Notes under the pieces: generated by a model
Told to the model about the DNA's origin: nothing
Databases searched by the model: none
What the model saw: the letters and a program-made list of their open reading frames with translations, nothing else
Part shown: positions 2,650 through 55,779 of the stretch, in pieces
How the letters are laid out: every line of letters begins with the position of its first letter
Position numbering within the stretch: position 1 is the stretch's first letter
Position numbers and translations under genes: made by a program
Assembly: GCA_016783605.1 (NCBI GenBank)
Contig: JADHWG010000001.1
Coordinates: 4,712-68,711 of the forward strand
From: Candidatus Omnitrophota bacterium
GTDB lineage: Bacteria > Omnitrophota > Gorgyraeia > Tantalellales > Tantalellaceae
Direction: 5' to 3'
Length of the DNA: 64,000 bases

Positions 2650-3461
2650 CCATTATTTATCCAATCCAGGATGTCACCGAACACTTTTTCTTTTCCACGT
2701 TCTATCGAAAGCGCGTGACACATTTCGGGGTAAACAATAATTTTTTTATCTTTTGTTTTTACCTTTTTGAATATACACTTGCTGACTTCCGGGCTTGCCA
2801 ACGAATCTTTCCCCGCGAGTAAAAATAACACCGGTTTTTTGATCTTTTTGGCGCGAAACAAACTTTTTACTTGAAAAGTAAACGTGCACCATAAGAGTTT
2901 CGCGGTGGCAAATCGGTGTTCGGCGGGATCATTATCCAACAACGTTTGATACTCTTCGTCTCTGGTACACATTCCGGAATCAAACGGCATTTTGAACCGG
3001 CGGCAGGGATTATAAAAATTCGCGGCGAATATCCGAAAATATTCCATAAGAGAAAATTTCAACCGGCTGAAAAAAGCCGGTGAAATTAATATTGTACCGT
3101 CAAAAAGATCTTGACGTGATAACCCCGCGTGAAAAGCGATAAGAGCCCCCATGCTTTCTCCGAGAATAAAAACTTTCTTTCCGGGATGTTCCGCGCGCGC
3201 TTTGCGAGTGAGCGATTCGATATCTTTAAAATACACGTCGAAAGAATCAATATGCCCCTTTTCACAATCCGTTTCGCCGAACCCTTTAAGTTCGATCGCG
3301 TAAGACGAAATACCGCTTTCAAGAAAAAATTCCGCGAGCGCGTCCCACCTGGCACTCTGCGCGCCAAGCCCGTGAATCAGTACAAGAACCGTTTTCGTTT
3401 TGGGTGCCTGCCACTTGCGATACAAAACATCACTATTTTTGTCTTTTATTAAATCCTGCAT
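2637..3461 (-). CDS. alpha/beta-hydrolase (lysophospholipase / monoglyceride lipase-like)
   Basis: HGLG oxyanion motif and GESMG nucleophile elbow; overlaps the rlmN start and is likely co-transcribed with it. Confidence 0.65.
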   Translation of the reverse strand: MQDLIKDKNSDVLYRKWQAPKTKTVLVLIHGLGAQSARWDALAEFFLESGISSYAIELKGFGETDCEKGHIDSFDVYFKDIESLTRKARAEHPGKKVFILGESMGALIAFHAGLSRQDLFDGTILISPAFFSRLKFSLMEYFRIFAANFYNPCRRFKMPFDSGMCTRDEEYQTLLDNDPAEHRFATAKLLWCTFTFQVKSLFRAKKIKKPVLFLLAGKDSLASPEVSKCIFKKVKTKDKKIIVYPEMCHALSIERGKEKVFGDILDWINNGCGR

Positions 3462-10420: not shown

Positions 10421-10549
10421 TTTTGCCTGCTCTTTCGTTTCGCCAAAACTTAACAGCCTTTCATCCCAACTCTTCACCACCCCGATTGCACCTCGTAGGT
10501 GCAATCGGTTGCACCTACGAGGTGCAATCGGGGTGGTGCGAAGGTTTTG

Positions 10550-10741: not shown

Positions 10742-10800
10742 AAACACCAACCTCGTAGGTTACTACCAACCTACGAGGTTGGTAGTAACCTACGAGGTTG
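10742..10800. repeat. family-B palindrome cluster (three CCTACGAGG units)
   Basis: aacctcgtaggttactaccaacctacgaggttggtagtaacctacgaggttgg. Confidence 0.7.
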
Positions 10801-26590: not shown

Positions 26591-27952
26591 TTATAAATCT
26601 ACAACTTGAATTTCATTTGTATCGTTTATACTATTCATAAAGTCGTAAATTTTATTATCAAAAATTATGTCACTTTCAGCGATCGGTCTTTTTAAGCGGA
26701 TGCCTTCCAGGGCGCGGCATCGGCTTAACGCGACATAGGTCTGTCCATGAGTAAAAGCGCCGCGGCCGATATCTATCATAACTTTATCGAACGTCTGCCC
26801 CTGACTTTTGTGTATTGTTATCGCCCATGCCAATTTTATTGGATATTGTTTAAAACAACCGATAACTTTTTCCTCGATATTGTCAGTTTTTTTATTGTGA
26901 GAATATCGTATTTTTTCCCAAGTCATTTTGGGAACGTCACAAATTTTCTGATCTATACTCACCCGTATCAAACTGTCGGAGAGTTCTACAACCCTGCATA
27001 TCGTCCCGTTCACCCATTGTTTTTTAGGATCGTTTTTAACCATGATCACCTGGGCGCCGGTTTTCAGCGTAATATCTTTTTCGACCGGATAATCTTTATC
27101 TTTAAATTCTCCTTCTATTGAGGCGGAATATGTGAATTCTTCATTCGAAATTTGAGCGAGACGCTTTTTGTTAATTCTTTCCGCGACACTATTCGTTGCC
27201 GTTAACGTCACAACTCCTTCATTCTCCTCTCGATTATCACTATCTACTCTTTCGTTCAAACCAAAAAGATCGTCCGCGGCGCATATCTTTTCTCGGACTT
27301 TATTTAAGAGAGAGATAAATTTCTCATCTTTTTGCCTGTATATTTTACTGAGATCGATCGTTCTCAATTTAATTTCTCTAAATACGTTAGCGCTGAAAAA
27401 ATATGGACTGGTGTATCTCTGTTTTAGAATATCTTCGAATTCTTTGTTAACGACCGGCGGCAACTGAAAAAGGTCCCCGAACAAGATCATCCTCGCGCCT
27501 CCAAACGCCGAATTCATTTCATTTCTGTTCAATCTAAGCGAAGAATCTATCCCATCCAGCAGATCCGCCCTTACCATAGACGCCTCATCAATAACAACAG
27601 CATCAATGCGATGCATCAGATCATCTTTATATAAGCGTTTAATGTGGTCGCGCAGAATAAACCTCGGCGGAAACCTGAAAAAGGAATGAATCGTTTGTCC
27701 ATGCACTTTGATAGCCGCGACCCCGGTCGGCGCCAATACAACGATATTCTTTCGGGTGTTCATCCTGAAATATTCCAAGAGAGTTGACTTCCCCGTTCCG
27801 GCTTTCCCCGTAATAAAAATATGTTCACGAGAATTCTCCAAAAGTTCAAATGCCGCGCGAAATTCGTCATTAAACTCAAAGTCGGTCGGAAGTTCCGTTT
27901 TTGTCTCTCGTACAAGTTCATTTTTAAAATCATCCGGCATACTTAACTCCAA
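26591..27952 (-). CDS. Pif1/RecD-family (AAA_30) DNA helicase
   Basis: Walker A GKAGTGKST, VIDEASM, and C-terminal AITIHKSQGQTFD / GQTYVALSR motifs. Confidence 0.7.
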   Translation of the reverse strand: MELSMPDDFKNELVRETKTELPTDFEFNDEFRAAFELLENSREHIFITGKAGTGKSTLLEYFRMNTRKNIVVLAPTGVAAIKVHGQTIHSFFRFPPRFILRDHIKRLYKDDLMHRIDAVVIDEASMVRADLLDGIDSSLRLNRNEMNSAFGGARMILFGDLFQLPPVVNKEFEDILKQRYTSPYFFSANVFREIKLRTIDLSKIYRQKDEKFISLLNKVREKICAADDLFGLNERVDSDNREENEGVVTLTATNSVAERINKKRLAQISNEEFTYSASIEGEFKDKDYPVEKDITLKTGAQVIMVKNDPKKQWVNGTICRVVELSDSLIRVSIDQKICDVPKMTWEKIRYSHNKKTDNIEEKVIGCFKQYPIKLAWAITIHKSQGQTFDKVMIDIGRGAFTHGQTYVALSRCRALEGIRLKRPIAESDIIFDNKIYDFMNSINDTNEIQVVDL

Positions 27953-28086
27953 TCACAAAATCTTTACTTTGTCATCCCCCCTATTGTATCAACACACCGC
28001 GGTGATACAACCGTTTTTCCCCTCACTTAGTTACCTTTTTGTCGGTTCTGAGTTCAAAGCAGCTCGTCACTAACAAAAACAGGAAC

Positions 28087-28127
28087 ATCTCCCTTGCGGG
28101 TGACGTCCCTGTTTTTTCTTTTTTTGT
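28087..28127. repeat. hairpin-terminator repeat, copy 1 (aacaggaacatctcccttgcgggtgacgtccctgtt)
   Basis: Near-identical to copy 2 at 29225..29265 and in the same orientation. The two copies bracket the HEPN/MNT pair. Confidence 0.7.
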
Positions 28128-28595
28128 TTAAAACTTGAACTGCTGTTGTGGGTTTTCCTTCCTAATCTCTTTTTTAATAATCTGAATAAACTTAGTTGCC
28201 GAACTTAAGGCATTCTTTGCGTCAGTATTTGAAAGATTCAATTTCCACGGTTCATAGATGAATTTATTACGGTTTTTTCTCATATAATCAAATTTTGCGG
28301 TTAATGCTTTATATTCCGCACCCAAAAAATATTCCGTGAAACCCACAACTGTTTTGTGTTGGAAATTTGTTGTAGGTCTGAAGCCTTTTATGAATACAAA
28401 CGCTCTTGCCGCGTGAAGCATGGCGTTATAAGCCATCTCATATGAACATGTCTCATCTATCGCAAGTGTTTTTTCACTGGCCTTCAGTTTACTCTCTGCA
28501 GCCTGTATCAACTTCTCTATCTGACCTACTCCTATCTTCTCCCTTTTAATAAGCTTCTTTTCTAAATATTCATTCAAAAATTTATCAGAGTTCAT
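28128..28595 (-). CDS. HEPN-domain protein (putative toxin of a HEPN/MNT pair)
   Basis: 155 aa all-helical, with an Rx6H motif (FRPTTNFQH). Overlaps the upstream nucleotidyltransferase gene by 11 nt. Confidence 0.55.
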   Translation of the reverse strand: MNSDKFLNEYLEKKLIKREKIGVGQIEKLIQAAESKLKASEKTLAIDETCSYEMAYNAMLHAARAFVFIKGFRPTTNFQHKTVVGFTEYFLGAEYKALTAKFDYMRKNRNKFIYEPWKLNLSNTDAKNALSSATKFIQIIKKEIRKENPQQQFKF

Positions 28596-29157
28596 TTGCT
28601 GTTCCCTTTATTAATATTTTTTTTCCTTTCACTACCGCAGAGACAAAAGAATCTTTCTTCGCTTTTTCTTTTTTATATTCCTTTTCCGTATATGTCGTGT
28701 AATTGACTTCTCGGAACAATTCTTTTTCGAGTCCACTTATAACTGTTATTAAGTTGTTCTCATCAATATTGTCACCTATTAAAAACAGGTCTACATCACT
28801 ATCGTTTCTCTCATCTCCTTTAGCGAAGGATCCGTATACGAATGCCATCCTAATGCCATTTATAGCTATTATGGCGTCACTAAGATATTTGATGATTCCT
28901 TCTGTTTTGTGAAAAATATTTTTTAACTCTTCATATATGGGACTCCTCTTATTTAATGAAAAAAGCTTAATGTTTCCCACGCTTCTAACATTAAGCATCC
29001 CCAAAGAAAGAAGTTTTTTTAACTCCCGGTGTACATTTCCAACGGATATCTTATGCATTGAAGCCAACTGCCGGGTATAGAACTCATTGTCGGGTTCACC
29101 AAAGAACGTGCTCAATATGATCTGTCTGGTTTTTGATCCTAATATTTCTTTAAACAT
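28585..29157 (-). CDS. winged-HTH plus minimal nucleotidyltransferase (MNT) protein
   Basis: GSFAKGDERNDSDVDLFL nucleotidyltransferase (NTase) signature (GSx9-13DxD) with an N-terminal HTH. Confidence 0.7.
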   Translation of the reverse strand: MFKEILGSKTRQIILSTFFGEPDNEFYTRQLASMHKISVGNVHRELKKLLSLGMLNVRSVGNIKLFSLNKRSPIYEELKNIFHKTEGIIKYLSDAIIAINGIRMAFVYGSFAKGDERNDSDVDLFLIGDNIDENNLITVISGLEKELFREVNYTTYTEKEYKKEKAKKDSFVSAVVKGKKILIKGTANEL

Positions 29158-29224
29158 ATTGTTCCTCTTTCGAGAACAATTGTACTCATATTGAGAACAT
29201 AAGTCAAGCTTAATTTCAAAATGA

Positions 29225-29265
29225 AAACAGGGACATCTCCCTTGCGGGTGACATCCCTGTTTTTA
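29225..29265. repeat. hairpin-terminator repeat, copy 2
   Basis: aacagggacatctcccttgcgggtgacatccctgtt followed by a T-run. Confidence 0.7.
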
Positions 29266-29416
29266 TAGAAACTGTTCATTTTTTATACATATCAGATATA
29301 TTTACACTTTTGCTTATATATTCTGCTCTTTTTGCATATAAGAATTTTTCTGAATGAGACCCTCCTCAAATGACTATCATTGAATAAGTACCTTTTCGGA
29401 GATAAAGAGATAAGAA

Positions 29417-29662
29417 CTATTGGTTATTGCCGATGAGGGCCAGTTTTTTAGTCCTGTTCCATTTCTTAAGCTGGATTTCGCGGTTTCTGGCTGTGGATTT
29501 ATCAGGATGCTCTTCCTGATAAACAAGTTCAACCGGGAGGCGCATTCTGGTGTATCTACTTGCCTTCTTTTTGTTGTGGCGTTCGACTCTTTTTGTAACG
29601 TCCGTGGTTATGCCGACATAGAGTTTGCCGTCATTGCATTGTAAAATATAAAGATACCACAT
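29417..29662 (-). CDS. GIY-YIG nuclease superfamily protein (UPF0213-like)
   Basis: YILQCNDGKLYVGITTDVTKRVERHN motif; I moved the start to MWYLY. Confidence 0.75.
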   Translation of the reverse strand: MWYLYILQCNDGKLYVGITTDVTKRVERHNKKKASRYTRMRLPVELVYQEEHPDKSTARNREIQLKKWNRTKKLALIGNNQ

Positions 29663-29693
29663 AAGCTTTGGTATGCCGTAAATTTGCATGATA

Positions 29694-29960
29694 CTGGCCC
29701 CTCGACTCGCTCTTCGAGCTCGCTCGGGGTCAAATATAAAAAGTCCCGATTAAGTGTTTTTTAACCGGGACTTCTTTTTCGCGTTACGTTTTTCTGGTCC
29801 CTCAACTCGCTAAAATGCTCCTTCTCGTCGCATTTCTTCACGCTCGTTCGGGATCAATTTTCGCGTTCGCGAAAATTGGTCCCTCAACTCGCTAAAATGC
29901 TCCTTCTCGTCGCATTTCTTCACGCTCGTTCGGGATCAATTTTCGCGTTCGCGAAAATTG
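29694..29960. repeat. tandem repeat: one degenerate plus two perfect 82-bp units abutting the tRNA-Lys 3' end
   Basis: The unit gtccctcaactcgctaaaatgctccttctcgtcgcatttcttcacgctcgttcgggatcaattttcgcgttcgcgaaaattg occupies 29797..29878 and 29879..29960. The last unit overlaps the tRNA CCA. On the tRNA strand each unit ends …GGGAC followed by CA. Confidence 0.8.
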
Positions 29961-30034
29961 GTGAGCCGCCTTGGACTCGAACCAAGCACCCACGCCTTAA
30001 AAGGGCGTTGCTCTACCGGATGAGCTAGCGGCCC
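29959..30034 (-). tRNA. tRNA-Lys (anticodon UUU), CCA encoded
   Basis: Acceptor stem GGGCCGC/GCGGCUC, anticodon arm ACGCC-CUUUUAA-GGCGU, T-arm GGTTCGAGTCC. Confidence 0.85.
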
Positions 30035-30054: not shown

Positions 30055-30621
30055 TCAGTTCATTATTTCTTTTTCTTTTTCAGCTAAAATTGTTTCCAGT
30101 TTTTTTGTGTAGTCAGTCGTCAATTTCTGTACTTTGTCTTTTGTAAGAAATTTGTCGTCTTCGGTCATTTTGTTATCTTTTTCAAATTTCGCGGCTACGT
30201 CGTTCGCGTGATGACGTGCGTTTCGTATTGAAACTTTTCCTTCTTCAACTATTCTGTGAAGCACTTTTACAAGTTCAACTCGTCTCTCTTTTGTTAACTG
30301 CGGCATGGAAAGACGTATAAGTTTGCCGTCGTTTATCGGGGTTATCCCTATGTCGGATGTCAGGATCGCTTTCTCTATCGGGTCCATGGAAGACTTATCC
30401 CACGGCTGGATCACTATCATACGCGGTTCCGGAATGGTTATATTCGCCAATTGTTTAAGCGGCGTTTTTGTGCCGTAATAATCTATTTTCACACTGTCAA
30501 CCAAACTCGGATGAGCTCTTCCGGTCCTGATGCTTGAAAATTGTTTTTTAACGGCCTCGAGCGCTGTTTTCATTTTAAGTTCGGACTCTTTTACAACTCT
30601 GTCAATTTCTGTTTGAATCAT
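30055..30621 (-). CDS. frr: ribosome recycling factor
   Basis: 188 aa with full-length family similarity. Confidence 0.9.
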   Translation of the reverse strand: MIQTEIDRVVKESELKMKTALEAVKKQFSSIRTGRAHPSLVDSVKIDYYGTKTPLKQLANITIPEPRMIVIQPWDKSSMDPIEKAILTSDIGITPINDGKLIRLSMPQLTKERRVELVKVLHRIVEEGKVSIRNARHHANDVAAKFEKDNKMTEDDKFLTKDKVQKLTTDYTKKLETILAEKEKEIMN

Positions 30622-33283: not shown

Positions 33284-33413
33284 GTAGGGGCACGGCATGC
33301 CGTGCCATTTACCGCACCAATCATCGATCCAATGAGGGCACGGCATGCCGTGCCATTTACCGCACCAATCATCGATCCAATGAGGGCACGGCATGCCGTG
33401 CCCCTACGAGGTT
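33284..33413. repeat. BIME-like array: three REP-A palindromes (GGGCACGGCATGCCGTGCC) separated by an identical 28-bp linker
   Basis: Cores at ~33288, 33336 and 33384; linker atttaccgcaccaatcatcgatccaatga. Its 'spacers' are identical, so it is not a CRISPR. Confidence 0.8.
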
Positions 33414-39982: not shown

Positions 39983-40047
39983 CCCCCTCGACAACCTCGT
40001 AGATTGCACCTCGTAGGTGCAACCTACGAGGTTGTCGAGGGGGTAAA
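39983..40047. repeat. family-B triloop-hairpin palindrome cluster
   Basis: caacctcgtagattgcacctcgtaggtgcaacctacgaggttg. Confidence 0.7.
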
Positions 40048-47716: not shown

Positions 47717-47855
47717 GAGGGGTCGGGGAGTTTCCCGACTCCTCATCCTGAAGCCCAAAGGGCTGAAGGATCTCTATAGATTCTTTTGGAAGATTAACAA
47801 GAGATCCTTCGCTTTGCTCAGGATGAGTGGTCGGAGAAAAACTCCCCGACCCCTC
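47717..47855. mobile_element. MITE-1, copy 1 (139 bp; TIR GAGGGGTCGGGGAG; TSD AGTTAATT)
   Basis: ~60-bp imperfect inverted arms; identical 8-bp direct repeats flank the element at 47709..47716 and 47856..47863; inserted next to a REP-A copy. Confidence 0.8.
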
Positions 47856-47885
47856 AGTTAATTGAGGGCACGGCATGCCGTGCCC

Positions 47886-50440: not shown

Positions 50441-50449
50441 AAATTAATT

Positions 50450-50588
50450 GAGGGGTCGGGGAGTTTCCCGACTCCTCATCCTGAAGCCCAAAGGGCTGAA
50501 GGATCTCTATAGGTTCTTTTGGAAAATTAACAAGAGATCCTTCGCTTTGCTCAGGATGAGTGGTCGGAGAAAAACTCCCCGACCCCTC
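50450..50588. mobile_element. MITE-1, copy 2 (139 bp; TSD AATTAATT)
   Basis: Same TIRs as copy 1; 8-bp direct repeats at 50442..50449 and 50589..50596. Confidence 0.8.
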
Positions 50589-50590
50589 AA

Positions 50591-51856
50591 TTAATTCAAA
50601 TCCGCCCCTACTTGTTTGCGCACCCGCGCGGGAACTCCCATTACCGTTTCTCCGGCGGCGACATCTTTATTTTTCGTAACAACACTTCCCGCGCCTATTT
50701 TCGCGCCTTTCCCAATTTTTACCGGCGCAACAAAAATTGCGCCGACTCCTACAAACACATCATCTTCTATTATCGTGTTAAACTTTTTCTCACCATCATA
50801 ATTCGCGGTGATCACTCCCGCGCCGACATTCACTCGCTTGCCGACTACGGCGTCCCCCAGATACGTGTGATGTTTCACCCGCGTTTTGGTTCCTATTTTT
50901 GTCCGGCAAACTTCCACAAAATTTCCTATTTCAACTTCTTCCGCAAGCCGCGAACCGCCGCGAAGCCTGGCAAAGGGCCCGATCCGGCAGGCCGCCTTAA
51001 TTTCAACATCGGCTTCAATAACCGTATTCGGAAAAATTATGGTTTCAGCTTCGATCTTTGCCGATTCATCTATGTATGTCGACTCCGGAGCGATTATGGT
51101 CACTCCTTTTTTCATTAACTTCTCGAGAGTTTTTCTGTTCATAATAGTATTCGCGCGCGCCAGATCTTCTCTTGAATTTATCCCTACCGCCTCTTCCGCG
51201 CCGCAACCGACCGCAACCGCTTTTTTCCCATTCTTCACAAAGAGATCAATAACATCCGTCAGATAAAACTCTTTTTTCTTCTCGTTGATCTTAACGCGTT
51301 TTATAAATTCTTCAAGGCCATCTCGAAGAAAACAATAAGTTCCGACATTTATCTCTTTAATTTCTTTTTGAGCTTGTGTCGCGTCTTTTTCCTCACAAAT
51401 CGCCGAGACATTTCCATCCGCGCCGCGAATGATTCGCCCGTATTCCCCCGCGTCGGTTAAAACCGAAGTTAATACCGTACACCCCGCCTTCTCTGAAAAA
51501 TGTGTATCCATCAAATTTCGATAAGTCGCACTTGTTATGAGAGGCGCATCAGCGCACGTTACCAATACGTCTTTTTCTTTCGTAAGACCGTCCAGCGCCT
51601 GTTTCAGGGCGTCTGCCGATCCCAAAAGTTTTTTTTGTTCAACAAACTTTAGTTTTTCACCTGTCAAAGAACTTTTGATCTGCTCCGCGTTATATCCTAC
51701 AACAACCGTAATGTCCGTTATACCGGAGGATCTAAGATTTTCTATAACTCTTCCCAATATCGTCTTCGATCCAACTTTGTGCAATACTTTGGGAAGACCG
51801 GATTTCATCCTGGTCCCTTTACCCGCCGCCAAAACAACCGCCGTAATGTTATTCAT
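50591..51856 (-). CDS. glmU: bifunctional GlcNAc-1-P uridyltransferase / GlcN-1-P acetyltransferase (GlmU-like)
   Basis: N-terminal nucleotidyltransferase motif LAAGKGTRM and a C-terminal left-handed beta-helix with hexapeptide repeats. Confidence 0.75.
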   Translation of the reverse strand: MNNITAVVLAAGKGTRMKSGLPKVLHKVGSKTILGRVIENLRSSGITDITVVVGYNAEQIKSSLTGEKLKFVEQKKLLGSADALKQALDGLTKEKDVLVTCADAPLITSATYRNLMDTHFSEKAGCTVLTSVLTDAGEYGRIIRGADGNVSAICEEKDATQAQKEIKEINVGTYCFLRDGLEEFIKRVKINEKKKEFYLTDVIDLFVKNGKKAVAVGCGAEEAVGINSREDLARANTIMNRKTLEKLMKKGVTIIAPESTYIDESAKIEAETIIFPNTVIEADVEIKAACRIGPFARLRGGSRLAEEVEIGNFVEVCRTKIGTKTRVKHHTYLGDAVVGKRVNVGAGVITANYDGEKKFNTIIEDDVFVGVGAIFVAPVKIGKGAKIGAGSVVTKNKDVAAGETVMGVPARVRKQVGADLN

Positions 51857-51953
51857 CTTTCTGTTTCCTTAAGTTCCCACCGATAATTGGCTACCCGATG
51901 CTGTCCATAGCCTAATTTCAAACATCAATTTTGTCAACTATTTGAGGGGTCGG

Positions 51954-52064
51954 GGAGTTTTTCGACCCCTCATCCTGAAGCCCAAAGGGCTGAAGGATCT
52001 CTATAGATCCTTCGCTTCGCCCAAGATGACACCTTTGCAAGAGGGGAAAACTCCCCGACCCCTC
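51954..52064. mobile_element. MITE-1, copy 3 (111 bp internal-deletion variant; TSD AACTATTT)
   Basis: Same TIRs; 8-bp direct repeats at 51946..51953 and 52065..52072. Confidence 0.75.
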
Positions 52065-52237
52065 AACTATTTATCAAAATGCCCATCCGTCGCTACAGAA
52101 GCGATTTTATAAAATTGGAGTGAAATTTTATTTGACAAATAGTGTTCTTTCATGTACACTTTACGTAGGATTTGATTCAAGGGACTGGGGATTCCCGGTC
52201 GGCAAAAAGCTCTGACGTAAGTCGGAGCTTTTTGTTT

Positions 52238-53124: not shown

Positions 53125-53198
53125 ATGGCTGGCGGGCAAGGACTCGAACCTTGACAAGCAGCTCCAAAAGCTGCGGTGCTACCATTACACTACCCGCC
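53125..53198 (-). tRNA. tRNA-Gln (anticodon UUG), U1:A72, CCA encoded
   Basis: Acceptor stem UGGCGGG/CCCGCCA, anticodon arm GCAGC-UUUUGGA-GCUGC, T-arm CAAGGTTCGAGTCCTTG, and a downstream terminator hairpin gattttcagcctttggctgaaaatc. Confidence 0.8.
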
Positions 53199-53204
53199 AT
53201 TTGA

Positions 53205-53262
53205 TCTCGTTGACGAACCAACGATCAACGATCAACGAACCAACGATCAACGAACCAACGAA
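53205..53262. repeat. short tandem repeat (CGATCAA / CGAACCAA units) immediately upstream of tRNA-Gln
   Basis: The run cgaaccaacgatcaacgatcaacgaaccaacgatcaacgaaccaacgaac lies between the spoVG stop and the tRNA 5' end. Confidence 0.7.
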
Positions 53263-53760
53263 CTACAATTCTATATCTTTGCCATCGGAAACATCAATGG
53301 TTTCTGGCACAACATCGGTCGCGGAAGGTTCCGATCCGGAAGGTTTGGTAAACAAAGTCTTCTCTTCGGCTTTTTCGCTTTTGGGAACAGGCGCTGAATT
53401 TTCGTTATACGCCTTTAAAATTTGTTCCTGTATATACACCCTGCATTCCTGAGTTATCGGATGAGCTATGTCCATATGGCTGTTATACTTTTCGTTTTCA
53501 GAGCCGGCAGAAAAAACTTGTGGTCTTTGCTCGCTTCCGCATTGATTGCAATATTTGCTTCCAACAACATTTTTAAATCTGCATTTGCCGCACGCGTCCA
53601 CCGCTTTTCTTGAAGGCATCGCGACAAAAAGACCACTATTCCCCTGGATAACCTTGACGTTCCTCACAACAAACCAGTCATCAAACGTCATCGTCGCGAA
53701 CGCCTTAAGTTTGCCGTCTTTACTTTCTGTCGGAAAAATTCTGACTTCCGTGATTTTCAT
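53263..53760 (-). CDS. spoVG: SpoVG-family protein with inserted Zn-ribbon and extended C-terminus
   Basis: N-terminus MKITEVRIFP…GKLKAFATMTFDDWFVVRNVKVIQGNSGLFVAMPSRK and a later DIAHPIT match SpoVG. Between them lies an insertion CGKCRFKNVVGSKYCNQCG. Confidence 0.7.
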   Translation of the reverse strand: MKITEVRIFPTESKDGKLKAFATMTFDDWFVVRNVKVIQGNSGLFVAMPSRKAVDACGKCRFKNVVGSKYCNQCGSEQRPQVFSAGSENEKYNSHMDIAHPITQECRVYIQEQILKAYNENSAPVPKSEKAEEKTLFTKPSGSEPSATDVVPETIDVSDGKDIEL

Positions 53761-54748: not shown

Positions 54749-54831
54749 GATGTATGTCCTTATATAAACGAATGATCTATGGAGATCCTTCGCTTCGCTC
54801 AGGATGAGGGGTCGAGAAATACCCCGCCCCC

Positions 54832-55779
54832 TCATTTACGTTTTAACAGATCTTCCATTTCCCTTACGATATCATCCACCCGCAGCCCGAAATGTTCATA
54901 CAATTCGTCCGGAGCGCCGCTTACTCCAAATTTTCCCTTTATGCCCATAAGCTTCATAGGACAAGGCTTTTCCTGAACGATCACTTCCGCGACAGCGCTT
55001 CCCAGCCCGCCATAAACGGTATGTTCTTCCACTGTCAAGATCGCCCCGGTTTCTTCCGCCGCGTTTATTATTGTTTCCTTATCGATCGGACACGGTGTGT
55101 GCAAATTTATTACACGGATATTTATTCCTTTAGATTTCAAAACTTCCGCCGCTTCGATCGCGCTTGTAACCAAATGCCCGCACGCGACTATCGTAGCATC
55201 GTTTCCCTCGGTCACGACATCCGCTTTACCTATCTTAAATTCCGATGTTCGTTTTAATATCGGAACTTTGACGCGTCCCAATCTGATATATACGGGCCCG
55301 GGTATATCCGCCGCCTGGAGAGTCGCTAAATTCGCCTCTTCAGAATCTGCCGGAACGACAACCGTCATATTCGGAATGATCCTCATAAGCGCGATCTCCT
55401 CCAACGCTTGGTGGGTCGCCCCGTCTTCTCCGACTGAAATTCCTCCGTGACTTCCGATAATATTCACATTCAAATTCATGTATGCCACCGACACTCTGAC
55501 CTGATCCCACGCGCGTCCGGAAGCAAACGCTCCGAACGTACACGCGAACGGTATCTTTCCCGAAAGCGCCAGTCCCGCCGCCGCGCATATCATATCCTGT
55601 TCGGCTACACCATGACTGATAAAACGCTCCGGATATTTTTCTTTAAACCAATTGGCTCTCACCGATTCCGTTAGATCCGCGGATAAAACAACTACATCTT
55701 TATTGGTCCGCCCCAAGTCAAGTAAAGCTTTCCCGAATCCGTCCCTGGTTGCCTCGCGCTCCGCACCTTTTTCTTTCAT
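54832..55779 (-). CDS. transketolase, C-terminal (pyrimidine-binding) subunit
   Basis: Split-type transketolase C-half of 315 aa. Confidence 0.85.
   Translation of the reverse strand: MKEKGAEREATRDGFGKALLDLGRTNKDVVVLSADLTESVRANWFKEKYPERFISHGVAEQDMICAAAGLALSGKIPFACTFGAFASGRAWDQVRVSVAYMNLNVNIIGSHGGISVGEDGATHQALEEIALMRIIPNMTVVVPADSEEANLATLQAADIPGPVYIRLGRVKVPILKRTSEFKIGKADVVTEGNDATIVACGHLVTSAIEAAEVLKSKGINIRVINLHTPCPIDKETIINAAEETGAILTVEEHTVYGGLGSAVAEVIVQEKPCPMKLMGIKGKFGVSGAPDELYEHFGLRVDDIVREMEDLLKRK

Follow-up and report, generated by a model that had tools for sequence, protein, structure and literature searches.

Several described systems involve small palindromes, nucleases or tRNA genes. Repetitive extragenic palindromic (REP) sequences and bacterial interspersed mosaic elements (BIMEs) are short imperfect palindromes with a 5'-GTAG core, associated with HUH/Y1 transposases (RAYT or TnpA-REP) in REPtrons. 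Islands inserted at tRNA or transfer-messenger RNA (tmRNA) genes by integrases are bounded by attL/attR direct repeats. A separate DNA-binding domain giving specificity for a long site defines the GIY-YIG endonucleases of the Seg/I-TevI type. SegB is reported to be a free-standing GIY-YIG homing endonuclease of phage T4/T6 tRNA clusters, the site of which includes a TψC stem-loop motif conserved among tRNA genes (PMC2330249), and its nuclease activity is reported to drive tandem segmental amplification of adjacent DNA (PMC13096335). Here we describe a locus in a 64,000-nucleotide (nt) stretch of contig JADHWG010000001.1 (the window), from a Candidatus Omnitrophota metagenome-assembled genome, in which about 270 bp of hairpins, including two identical 82-nt units, lie between a tRNA-Lys gene and the gene for an 81-residue GIY-YIG nuclease of the UPF0213 type. 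What is repeated in tandem is a conserved hairpin module belonging to a GIY-YIG cassette that is linked to tRNA 3' ends.

The genes of the locus are all on the minus strand, in the order rpsB, tsf, pyrH, frr (30055-30621), tRNA-Lys(UUU), the 82-nt units, further hairpins and the GIY-YIG gene; these are followed by genes for a protein with a winged helix-turn-helix (wHTH) and a nucleotidyltransferase domain, a HEPN protein and a Pif1-like helicase, and then by phoB, phoR and a Na/Pi-PhoU gene. For comparison, 240 loci encoding homologs were fetched from metagenomes, genomes and viral contigs; they are labelled with L numbers. The hairpin at the centre of the analysis is imperfect and carries 5'-YGAR-3' in both arms; it is called the GA-hairpin below. 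In order from the tRNA, the features are:

29959-30034, minus strand: tRNA-Lys(UUU) with encoded CCA (ARAGORN; Rfam RF00005, 60.5 bits)
29877-29958, minus strand: 82-nt unit adjoining the tRNA, with perfect hairpin at 29939-29958 and GA-hairpin at 29877-29938 (Tandem Repeats Finder, repeat search, fold, covariance model)
29795-29876, minus strand: second, identical 82-nt unit, with hairpin at 29857-29876 and GA-hairpin at 29795-29856
29733-29779, minus strand: terminator-like hairpin, AAAAAGAAGTCCCGG...CGGGACTTTTTATATT (fold; relatives L009, L088, L089, L168)
29695-29732, minus strand: leader GA-hairpin, 38 nt, TGACCCCGAGCGAGC-TCGAAG-AGCGAGTCGAGGGGCCA, directly upstream of the GIY-YIG gene
29417-29662, minus strand: UPF0213-type GIY-YIG nuclease gene, 81 residues from the homolog-supported start
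29398-29414, minus strand: conserved box, CTTATCTCTTTATCTCC, directly 3' of the GIY-YIG stop codon

Tandem Repeats Finder reports 2.0 copies of period 82 at 29795-29962 (100% identity, score 336), and in a repeat search 29795-29876 proved identical to 29877-29958. The array reaches 4 nt into tRNA-Lys (TGGT on the plus strand, ACCA on the tRNA strand), ACCA being the last four bases common to the tRNA and each unit, and the tRNA-strand end of each unit reads ...GAGGGACCA. An earlier note, made from the letters of the window without database searches, had described tandem 82-bp repeats at tRNA-Lys in the company of helicase, HEPN, wHTH-nucleotidyltransferase and GIY-YIG genes, which repeat finders and Pfam confirm; it had also reported that the final unit overlaps the encoded CCA and that the units end alike on the tRNA strand, as the 4-nt overlap bears out. 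Its count of two perfect units and one degenerate unit holds for the two identical copies; the third, however, shares with them only the GA-hairpin arms and half of the first hairpin. Further metagenome assemblies of this organism break precisely within the 82-nt repeat, so the copy number is at least two and not necessarily two.

Each unit begins with a 20-nt perfect hairpin, ATTTTCGCGAACGCGAAAAT, the stem of which also pairs with the CA of the CCA preceding it, and continues with a 62-nt GA-hairpin, TGATCCCGAACGAGCG...AGCGAGTTGAGGGACCA. In the latter, the 5'-YGAR-3' of both arms gives tandem G·A/A·G mismatches between Watson-Crick pairs, accompanied by a bulged U and a second tandem G·A; the terminal CCA mostly pairs with a 5' UGA and so belongs to the stem instead of forming a free tail. 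The predicted RNA fold of a unit has a free energy of -26.8 kcal/mol (z = -4.45 versus shuffles), and the junction hairpin gives z-scores of -5.75 to -7.28 versus shuffles. A covariance model of the GA-hairpin, considered below, matches both units, at 29875-29939 (40.2 bits, E = 2.4e-9) and at 29793-29857 (40 bits, E = 2.8e-9).

The region described as a third, degenerate unit (29695-29794) is 100 nt in length. It shares with the unit the imperfect-hairpin arms and half of the first hairpin, and where the unit has its first hairpin it carries the 47-nt terminator-like one; the 15-nt remnant that precedes this hairpin (29780-29794) is the part resembling half of the unit's first hairpin. The fold of 29690-29800 has a free energy of -36.7 kcal/mol (z = -4.5). 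The leader GA-hairpin is built like that of the 82-nt unit, with two tandem G·A/A·G mismatches as well as a bulged U; relative to the unit, two of its pairs have changed in a compensatory way (C-G to U-A, G-C to A-U), and the covariance model matches it at 29693-29733 (42.7 bits, E = 4e-10). A pattern holding both imperfect-hairpin arms, TGGYCCCTCRACTCGCT, has 3 matches in the 64 kb versus 0.26 expected. By Smith-Waterman alignment, the unit scores 26 against the GIY-YIG leader, compared with a shuffle mean of 13.9 (none of 1000 shuffles as high), and 10 against tRNA-Lys on either strand, below the shuffle mean of 12.6. Derivation of the unit from the 3' half of tRNA-Lys is thus ruled out, only ACCA being common to both; a CRISPR-like array is likewise ruled out, since the 'spacers' are identical.

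The GA-hairpin is a conserved structure with compensatory changes, found almost only beside these GIY-YIG genes. Thirty GA-hairpins, selected in part by a portion of their outer helix, were aligned. In the proposed structure 87.5% of cells are paired, 10 of 11 pairs vary at both positions, and the covariation score is 0.496; shuffles score 0.21, with none of 500 reaching the observed value, and slid controls do not exceed 0.124. Strong covariation is also seen at column pairs 6-61, 16-50 and 17-49, which played no part in the selection. The GA dinucleotides are invariant or nearly so, and G·U pairs are rare (~2% of cells). The arms of the leader hairpin are identical at 14-15 of 15 positions in L008, L088, L168 and L171, although synonymous sites are saturated. 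When 509 kb were searched with the covariance model, 54 matches were obtained, 45 of them with E < 0.01; by a tally of the match table, 41 of these 45 lie within ~400 nt of a GIY-YIG open reading frame (ORF), the exceptions being three copies in the window of an element resembling miniature inverted-repeat transposable elements (MITEs) and one weak match in coding sequence. Matches in a further 356 kb were limited to L161 and L168-L171, one of them, in L170, being ~6 kb away from the GIY-YIG gene with which that locus starts. The model found no GA-hairpin in 80 viral loci, nor at the tRNA-Ser and tRNA-Gln of the window. An independent simple descriptor occurs at 0.90 per kb on the upstream sense strand, versus 0.12 per kb elsewhere and 0.18 per kb in non-coding sequence.

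The MITE-like copies belong to a set of four palindromic intergenic elements of ~130 bp, located at 47725-47885, 50445-50605, 51945-52075 and 54770-54850 (one is partial), with terminal inverted repeats TTGAGGGGTCGGGGAG...CTCCCCGACCCCTCAA. Each carries one forward GA-hairpin (ATCCTGAGCRAAGCGAAGGAT) and one reversed (ATCCTTCAGCCCTTTGGGCTTCAGGAT), and three of the four are matched by the GIY-YIG-derived covariance model (47800, 50533 and 54781; E about 1e-4).

Searches of the window and ten related loci against Rfam 15, at gathering and permissive thresholds, gave only tRNA and tmRNA above threshold. The best non-tRNA match, to ALIL (20.7 bits versus a threshold of 50), is spurious, with rimP and miRNA families also far below threshold, so that assignment to a known RNA family was rejected. 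Reading the 'CUGA...GAA' core by eye as a hammerhead or kink-turn also fails, as the window copies have neither the required spacing of CUGANGA and GAA nor a 3-nt bulge. Loose fuzzy matching to the apical loop of the unit returned noise only, whereas a stricter junction pattern gave 4 clean matches.

The immediate history of the locus can be read from four related Omnitrophota (L009, L088, L089 and L125), which have in common the order rpsB-tsf-pyrH-frr-tRNA-Lys-GIY-YIG. Identity to the window is 79% for GIY-YIG and 62% for frr in L009, 81% and 70% in L088, 71% and 72% in L089, and 51% and 49% in L125, i.e. the divergence of GIY-YIG is core-like across the four. All four lack the 82-nt units. 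In L009, L088 and L089 the tRNA CCA is followed directly by the terminator hairpin and then by the leader hairpin, a GA-hairpin in the first two and a variant with a perfect stem in L089; in L168 a tRNA-Lys fragment stands directly before terminator hairpin, GA-hairpin and GIY-YIG. The two identical 82-nt units are a lineage-specific addition, and the GIY-YIG cassette is ancient and selected at the tRNA-Lys site, where only the third, ancestral copy of the hairpin module (or head) precedes the gene. L125 has a different spacer between tRNA-Lys and GIY-YIG, holding a duplicated tRNA-Lys T-arm fragment; at 2700-3000 of this locus an insert of ~190 bp is framed by the 19-nt T-arm copy (CAGGTTCGAGTCCTGCGCG) together with a repeated motif, AAGGGGGTTTTAGGGGG. 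GIY-YIG homologs of 74-87% identity also occur in unrelated contexts (L169, L170, L171).

Beyond these relatives, a tRNA or tmRNA gene on the same strand ends no more than 600 nt upstream of the homolog in 28 of the 240 loci, the isotypes including Lys, Asn, Phe, Met, Ser, Gln, His, Ala, Arg, Gly, Leu and Pro, in addition to tmRNA. The linked loci are mostly from Omnitrophota, Planctomycetota, Ignavibacteria and Zixibacteria; Oscillospiraceae homologs are located behind a membrane-protein gene instead of a tRNA. The commonest layout is tRNA-CCA, hairpin, forward GA-hairpin and gene. In a second layout a reversed GA-hairpin encloses a terminator-like hairpin and is followed by a forward GA-hairpin. 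Tandem or inverted arrays of heads are present in L064 (two ~97-nt units after tmRNA), L061 and L105, and inverted pairs and clusters of GA-hairpins in L013, L017, L025, L045, L090, L100, L104 and L105.

The junction motif CCAATTYT...ARAATTGAYCC occurs only in the window (twice), L009 and L158. In L009 it stands behind an ACCA within a truncated first GIY-YIG gene and ahead of a second, intact and diverged one. In L158 (chromosome CP070780) a homologous unit is inverted between the GIY-YIG stop codon and tRNA-Glu; its apical loop is as in the window unit, and its first hairpin has compensatory changes. Ectopic copies at sites other than tRNA genes (L008, L168, L169, L171) have 11-28 nt of a tRNA 3' end before the head; in L169 the leader and gene stand behind a terminator-type hairpin and a tRNA 3' fragment, and there are inverted flanking copies as well. 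A direct repeat of the tRNA 3' end is found past the GIY-YIG stop in L055 (17 nt), L161 (19 nt), L049 (15 nt) and L037 (10 nt). More generally, att-like repeats of 10-19 nt, starting in the T-loop or T-stem, flank a cassette of ~0.45 kb in L055, L161, L049, L037, L133, L145, L052 and L093, with no integrase in the few kb examined around such cassettes. A separate observation concerns viral contigs from IMG/VR (L188, L190, L196, L197, L222, L227, L245), where UPF0213-like genes lie inside same-strand tRNA arrays, some of them just 6-36 nt after a tRNA or tmRNA, and have no GA-hairpin.

The protein encoded next to the hairpins matches PF01541 with 73.3 bits (cut-off 22.6; E = 2e-20) over model positions 1-76 of 78, and PDB entries 1zg2 and 1ywl, annotated 'UPF0213', over nearly its full length (E = 3.8e-14 and 2.8e-10, respectively). 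E. coli YhbQ is a further member of the UPF0213 family. Y14, Y24, G26, R34, H38 and E71 are invariant in 31 homologs; in the GIY-YIG fold catalytic roles are played by the Tyr of GIY, the Tyr and Gly of YIG, an Arg and a metal-binding Glu. The 81 residues constitute the catalytic domain only, and TIGR01453 ('group I intron endonuclease') reaches 16.4 bits versus a cut-off of 56. The ratio of nonsynonymous to synonymous substitution (dN/dS) is 0.05-0.08, with synonymous sites near saturation.

An alternative upstream ATG at 29689 would give 90 residues; homologs mostly have 81. Gene callers extend GIY-YIG ORFs up through the hairpin and even through the tRNA (29663-29689 in the window; also P0006, P0008 and P0026), creating artefactual N termini such as MVVRVRPGSP...DPERGRGPSRGAT and MRVEGP...WYNLH, the latter a translation of a -10 element, TGGTATAAT. 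That the leader is coding ('DPERARRASRGAS', in frame with the ORF) was considered and rejected, since the same DNA motif is in other frames in homologs (RVEGP, P0008, P0026) and there is an in-frame stop upstream. Homologs of 69 residues do not represent 5'-truncated genes but ordinary ones called from an internal Met. In relatives, an element TGGTATACT or TGGTATAAT, of the TGnTATAAT-type -10 class, lies ~7 nt before the GIY-YIG ATG, with CGGCATACC as the window counterpart; this distance suggests a leaderless mRNA, which would place the hairpin upstream of the promoter.

On the other side of the gene, the 2.1 Mb of loci contain 17 occurrences of the box ATCTCTTTATCTC when at most 1 mismatch is allowed, 8 of the 17 being no more than 60 nt past a GIY-YIG stop on the sense strand; it lies 4-14 nt past the stop in the window, L008, L009, L045, L065, L088, L096 and L104. 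The loci sharing it, which are of Omnitrophota type, encode GIY-YIG proteins just 51-81% identical. At several loci the box is followed by TAGTTAAT or TATTTAAT boxes and by a second copy ~140 nt downstream.

Between the cassette and phoB lie the following further features:

29224-29264, both strands: 41-nt terminator-like hairpin, direct-repeat copy A (terminator scan)
28585-29157, minus strand: wHTH plus nucleotidyltransferase of MNT type (PF18765, E = 2.6e-10; PDC-M05A, E = 1.7e-56)
28128-28595, minus strand: HEPN protein (PF05168, E = 5e-7; PADLOC PDC-M05B, E = 5.1e-15)
28076-28116, downstream of HEPN: 41-nt hairpin, direct-repeat copy B (repeat search, pattern search)
26591-27940 (or 27952), minus strand: Pif1-family SF1B helicase (PF05970, E = 1.2e-27)

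The HEPN and MNT genes overlap by 11 nt (28585-28595). The nucleotidyltransferase scores 31.6 bits with the MntA model, below its equivalog cut-off of 60, and at the place expected for Rx4-6H the HEPN protein has RNKFIY, in ...MRKNRNKFIYEP..., and no His, as read from the sequence without alignment to a characterised HepT. The 41-bp hairpin, AAAACAGGRACATCTCCCTTGCGGGTGACRTCCCTGTTTTT, forms a direct repeat (95% identity) that exactly brackets MNT-HEPN (2 pattern matches versus 0 expected); it may mark the limits of a cassette or have arisen by duplication of a terminator. In L009 and L168 the MNT/HEPN pair is inverted and 36-43% identical, and it is absent from L089 and L125. Judged by sequence, the pair alone looks accessory and may be a separate toxin-antitoxin or defence pair (PADLOC candidate PDC-M05). 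The helicase has more than 100 homologs of ~440 residues at 57-91% identity, many from named Omnitrophota, in varying contexts. This phylum-wide conservation rules it out as an island gene; to judge by these homologs, it is an ordinary conserved Omnitrophota gene outside the cassette.

The window holds other repeats. A perfect 48-bp tandem repeat (2.4 copies, 33288-33402) upstream of rpsB contains the palindrome GGGCACGGCATGCCGTGCC, which recurs beside the MITE-like element at 47.87 kb (47860-47880). Repeats built on AACCTCGTAGGTTG (or CCTACGAGGT) at 850-891, 10486-10531, 10746-10799 and 39992-40025 form another small family, and perfect 15- and 22-bp tandem repeats, CAACGATCAACGAAC, lie at 53213-53263, directly 5' of tRNA-Gln (53126-53199, minus strand).

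The reading that we favour, with a probability of roughly 55%, is that the ~270 bp from tRNA-Lys to GIY-YIG comprise three tandem 'cassette heads' of a REP-like and SegB-like GIY-YIG cassette, the units having been duplicated and the hairpin acting together with the nuclease. Each head would consist of a perfect hairpin and an imperfect GA-hairpin with the 5'-YGAR-3' core in both arms. One head may have been inserted after the ACCA of the tRNA and then duplicated at this 4-nt microhomology, by slippage, unequal exchange or break-induced amplification; this course is suggested by the position of the units between the ACCA of the tRNA and their own terminal ACCA. The GA-hairpin would work as single-stranded or extruded DNA, like a REP element, as is suggested by the inverted copies, the MITE derivatives and the position between terminator and promoter in relatives, and the adjacent, putatively structure-specific small GIY-YIG nuclease would recognise or cut it. 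Breaks at the GA-hairpin could then drive local amplification, and the occasional copying of heads or cassettes to other (A)CCA or tRNA 3' ends, in a manner likened to phage SegB homing and segmental amplification at tRNA genes. A bolder version, to which we give less than even odds and which is put forward tentatively, is that the GA-hairpin and the 81-residue UPF0213 gene form an undescribed minimal mobile or self-amplifying cassette at tRNA/tmRNA 3' CCA ends, operating without integrase or transposase. The nuclease would recognise its own REP-like hairpin in single-stranded or extruded DNA and in this way direct the cassette to these ends or keep it there; such a cassette would seed tandem head arrays and MITE-like derivatives and would be a GIY-YIG counterpart of REP-RAYT.

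Several observations weigh against the proposal that the cassette heads act with the nuclease. We infer the action of GIY-YIG on the GA-hairpin from their co-location only, and the protein has no separate DNA-binding domain, unlike Seg or I-TevI endonucleases. Its vertical inheritance at tRNA-Lys under strong purifying selection would be unusual in a selfish homing gene and is in keeping with a host function. The MITE-like GA-hairpins adjoin no GIY-YIG gene and are also far from any tRNA. The 15-19-nt direct repeats at tRNA 3' ends are what tyrosine integrases working in trans classically leave behind, and do not point to a hydrolytic nuclease. The 82-nt copy number rests on short-read assemblies that are broken at this very point. 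Finally, the geometry of the tandem G·A pairs, like the sense orientation, would suit an RNA element too, and the window units, lying between the tRNA and the first terminator, are probably transcribed.

The last of these points leads to an alternative in which the units are the 3' trailer of tRNA-Lys, processed to CCA-ended small hairpin RNAs (tRNA-like minihelices) or affecting tRNA 3' maturation, and the leader is a cis-regulator of GIY-YIG. We consider this unlikely, even though tandem sheared G·A pairs are typical of RNA and form on the tRNA/GIY-YIG sense strand only, the units precede the first terminator-like hairpin and so belong to the tRNA transcription unit, RNA folding gives z-scores of -4.2 to -4.5, GA-hairpins end in (N)CCA at many loci, and the 3' arm GAGGGG stands 9-10 nt ahead of the upstream ATG. 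In relatives the GA-hairpin lies between a strong terminator and the -10 element, where it should be poorly transcribed; reversed copies are common (loci of the reversed-plus-forward layout, L169 downstream of the gene, L158 and the MITE-like elements), and the scarcity of G·U pairs, the pairing of the CCA with the 5' UGR and the lack of any matching Rfam family all weigh against an RNA role. If instead the repeats were neutral, REP- or MITE-like palindromes would have accumulated in safe DNA after tRNAs, the duplication would reflect slippage or be partly an assembly artefact, and GIY-YIG would be an unlinked housekeeping gene. The MITE-like elements at 47.7-54.8 kb, with GA-hairpins away from GIY-YIG and tRNA, the other perfect tandem repeats and palindromes of the window, the vertical inheritance of GIY-YIG under purifying selection and the 100% identity of the units, which must be very recent and at which assemblies break, can all be accommodated in this way. 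That the motif, in 865 kb of other sequence, is almost confined to the neighbourhood of GIY-YIG rather than other intergenic sites or tRNAs, that the tRNA-Ser and tRNA-Gln of the window lack it, that hairpin arms are conserved while synonymous sites are saturated, and that the head travels with the gene to ectopic sites, make a neutral origin quite improbable.

The earlier note had suggested a different origin for the repeats, as att-site scars that could arise when repeated integration and excision duplicate the tRNA 3' end in a degraded island, an account that now seems very improbable and is largely refuted. In its favour are the location at a tRNA 3' end, the units ending in ACCA as the tRNA does, the duplicated T-arm fragment between tRNA-Lys and GIY-YIG in L125, and the MNT/HEPN genes, bracketed by 41-bp repeats and inverted at 36-43% identity in L009; direct repeats of tRNA 3' ends do, moreover, flank homologous cassettes in other phyla (L055, L161, L049), outside the window. 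Within it, the similarity of unit and tRNA-Lys is just 4 nt, the alignment score of 10 versus a shuffle mean of 12.6 contradicting a duplicated tRNA end. An att core beyond the element was not found either: searches with the tRNA-Lys 3' end (12 to 20 nt, 2-3 mismatches) gave no second copy in the 64 kb, the single other match being a 12-mer with 2 mismatches at 55.4 kb. No recombinase or integrase was detected among the ORFs from phoB to frr, each of which was assigned to another family, so the statement that no integrase remains was correct. Decay is not apparent: the GIY-YIG, MNT, HEPN and helicase ORFs are all full length, the low dN/dS of GIY-YIG has been given above, and G+C content (0.35-0.41 across the region) and GC skew, like that of the surroundings, are unremarkable. 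The four relatives that keep GIY-YIG at tRNA-Lys, with core-like divergence and without the repeat, argue against an island, as the intergenic MITE-like repeats far from tRNA argue against a repeat specific to tRNA ends. What survives of the mobile-type label is the tie to the tRNA 3' end and a nuclease cassette of mobile type; it does not extend to the phylum-wide helicase.

The locus thus presents a covariation-supported non-coding element, without an Rfam family or a description in the literature searched, that is tied to a UPF0213 gene and to tRNA/tmRNA 3' ends in at least four phyla. A literature search gave no description of GIY-YIG, UPF0213 or YhbQ with a tRNA or hairpin arrangement, weak evidence as its coverage was incomplete. 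If the nuclease acts on the hairpin, a testable function would be available for the widespread 'hypothetical' UPF0213 family. There are also practical consequences, in that hairpin arrays break metagenome assemblies at tRNA genes and give rise to spurious N-terminal extensions of GIY-YIG proteins ('DPERGRGPSRGAT', 'MRVEGP').

By sequence, BH0048 (PDB 1zg2) and EF2693 (PDB 1ywl), described by their depositors as 'hypothetical', belong to the same family of small stand-alone GIY-YIG proteins; we know of no reported link of UPF0213 proteins to tRNA genes or to a hairpin element. The neighbouring pair resembles HepT/MntA type VII toxin-antitoxin systems and PDC-M05 in its adjacent, overlapping nucleotidyltransferase and HEPN genes, but differs in missing the MntA cut-off, in the N-terminal wHTH of the nucleotidyltransferase and in having RNKFIY where Rx4-6H is usual. 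With integrase-mediated islands the GIY-YIG cassette has in common the tRNA/tmRNA 3'-end site, the 10-19-nt repeats in L055, L161, L049 and L037 and the ectopic tRNA fragments. By contrast, it has no integrase and, with a hairpin head and an 81-residue ORF, measures only ~0.4-0.5 kb, and in the window there is no distal repeat.

The likeness to SegB lies in the GIY-YIG domain, in the position of the gene beside tRNA genes of many isotypes and in the viral UPF0213-like genes within tRNA arrays. However, SegB is larger than the 81-residue window protein, which lacks a separate DNA-binding domain, and no GA-hairpin is described for SegB, nor did the 80 viral loci yield one. Moreover, the window gene is chromosomal, vertically inherited within its clade and under strong purifying selection; its retention at frr-tRNA-Lys in four relatives differs from the sporadic presence and rapid decay of homing endonucleases. 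Compared with REP/BIME systems, a hydrolytic GIY-YIG nuclease stands in place of an HUH/Y1 transposase and a YGAR core on both arms in place of GTAG, the link to tRNA/tmRNA 3' ends is strong, and dispersed copies are rare in the flanks examined outside the window. Nevertheless, both involve short imperfect palindromes with an invariant core, arranged singly, in tandem or in alternation, in intergenic positions after genes and terminators; in both, the palindromes flank a small, conserved, usually single-copy nuclease-type gene and also occur as dispersed copies. If the proposal is correct, the GIY-YIG cassette would be a hydrolytic-nuclease analogue to REP-RAYT and SegB, exemplifying how small elements may persist and amplify beside tRNA genes.

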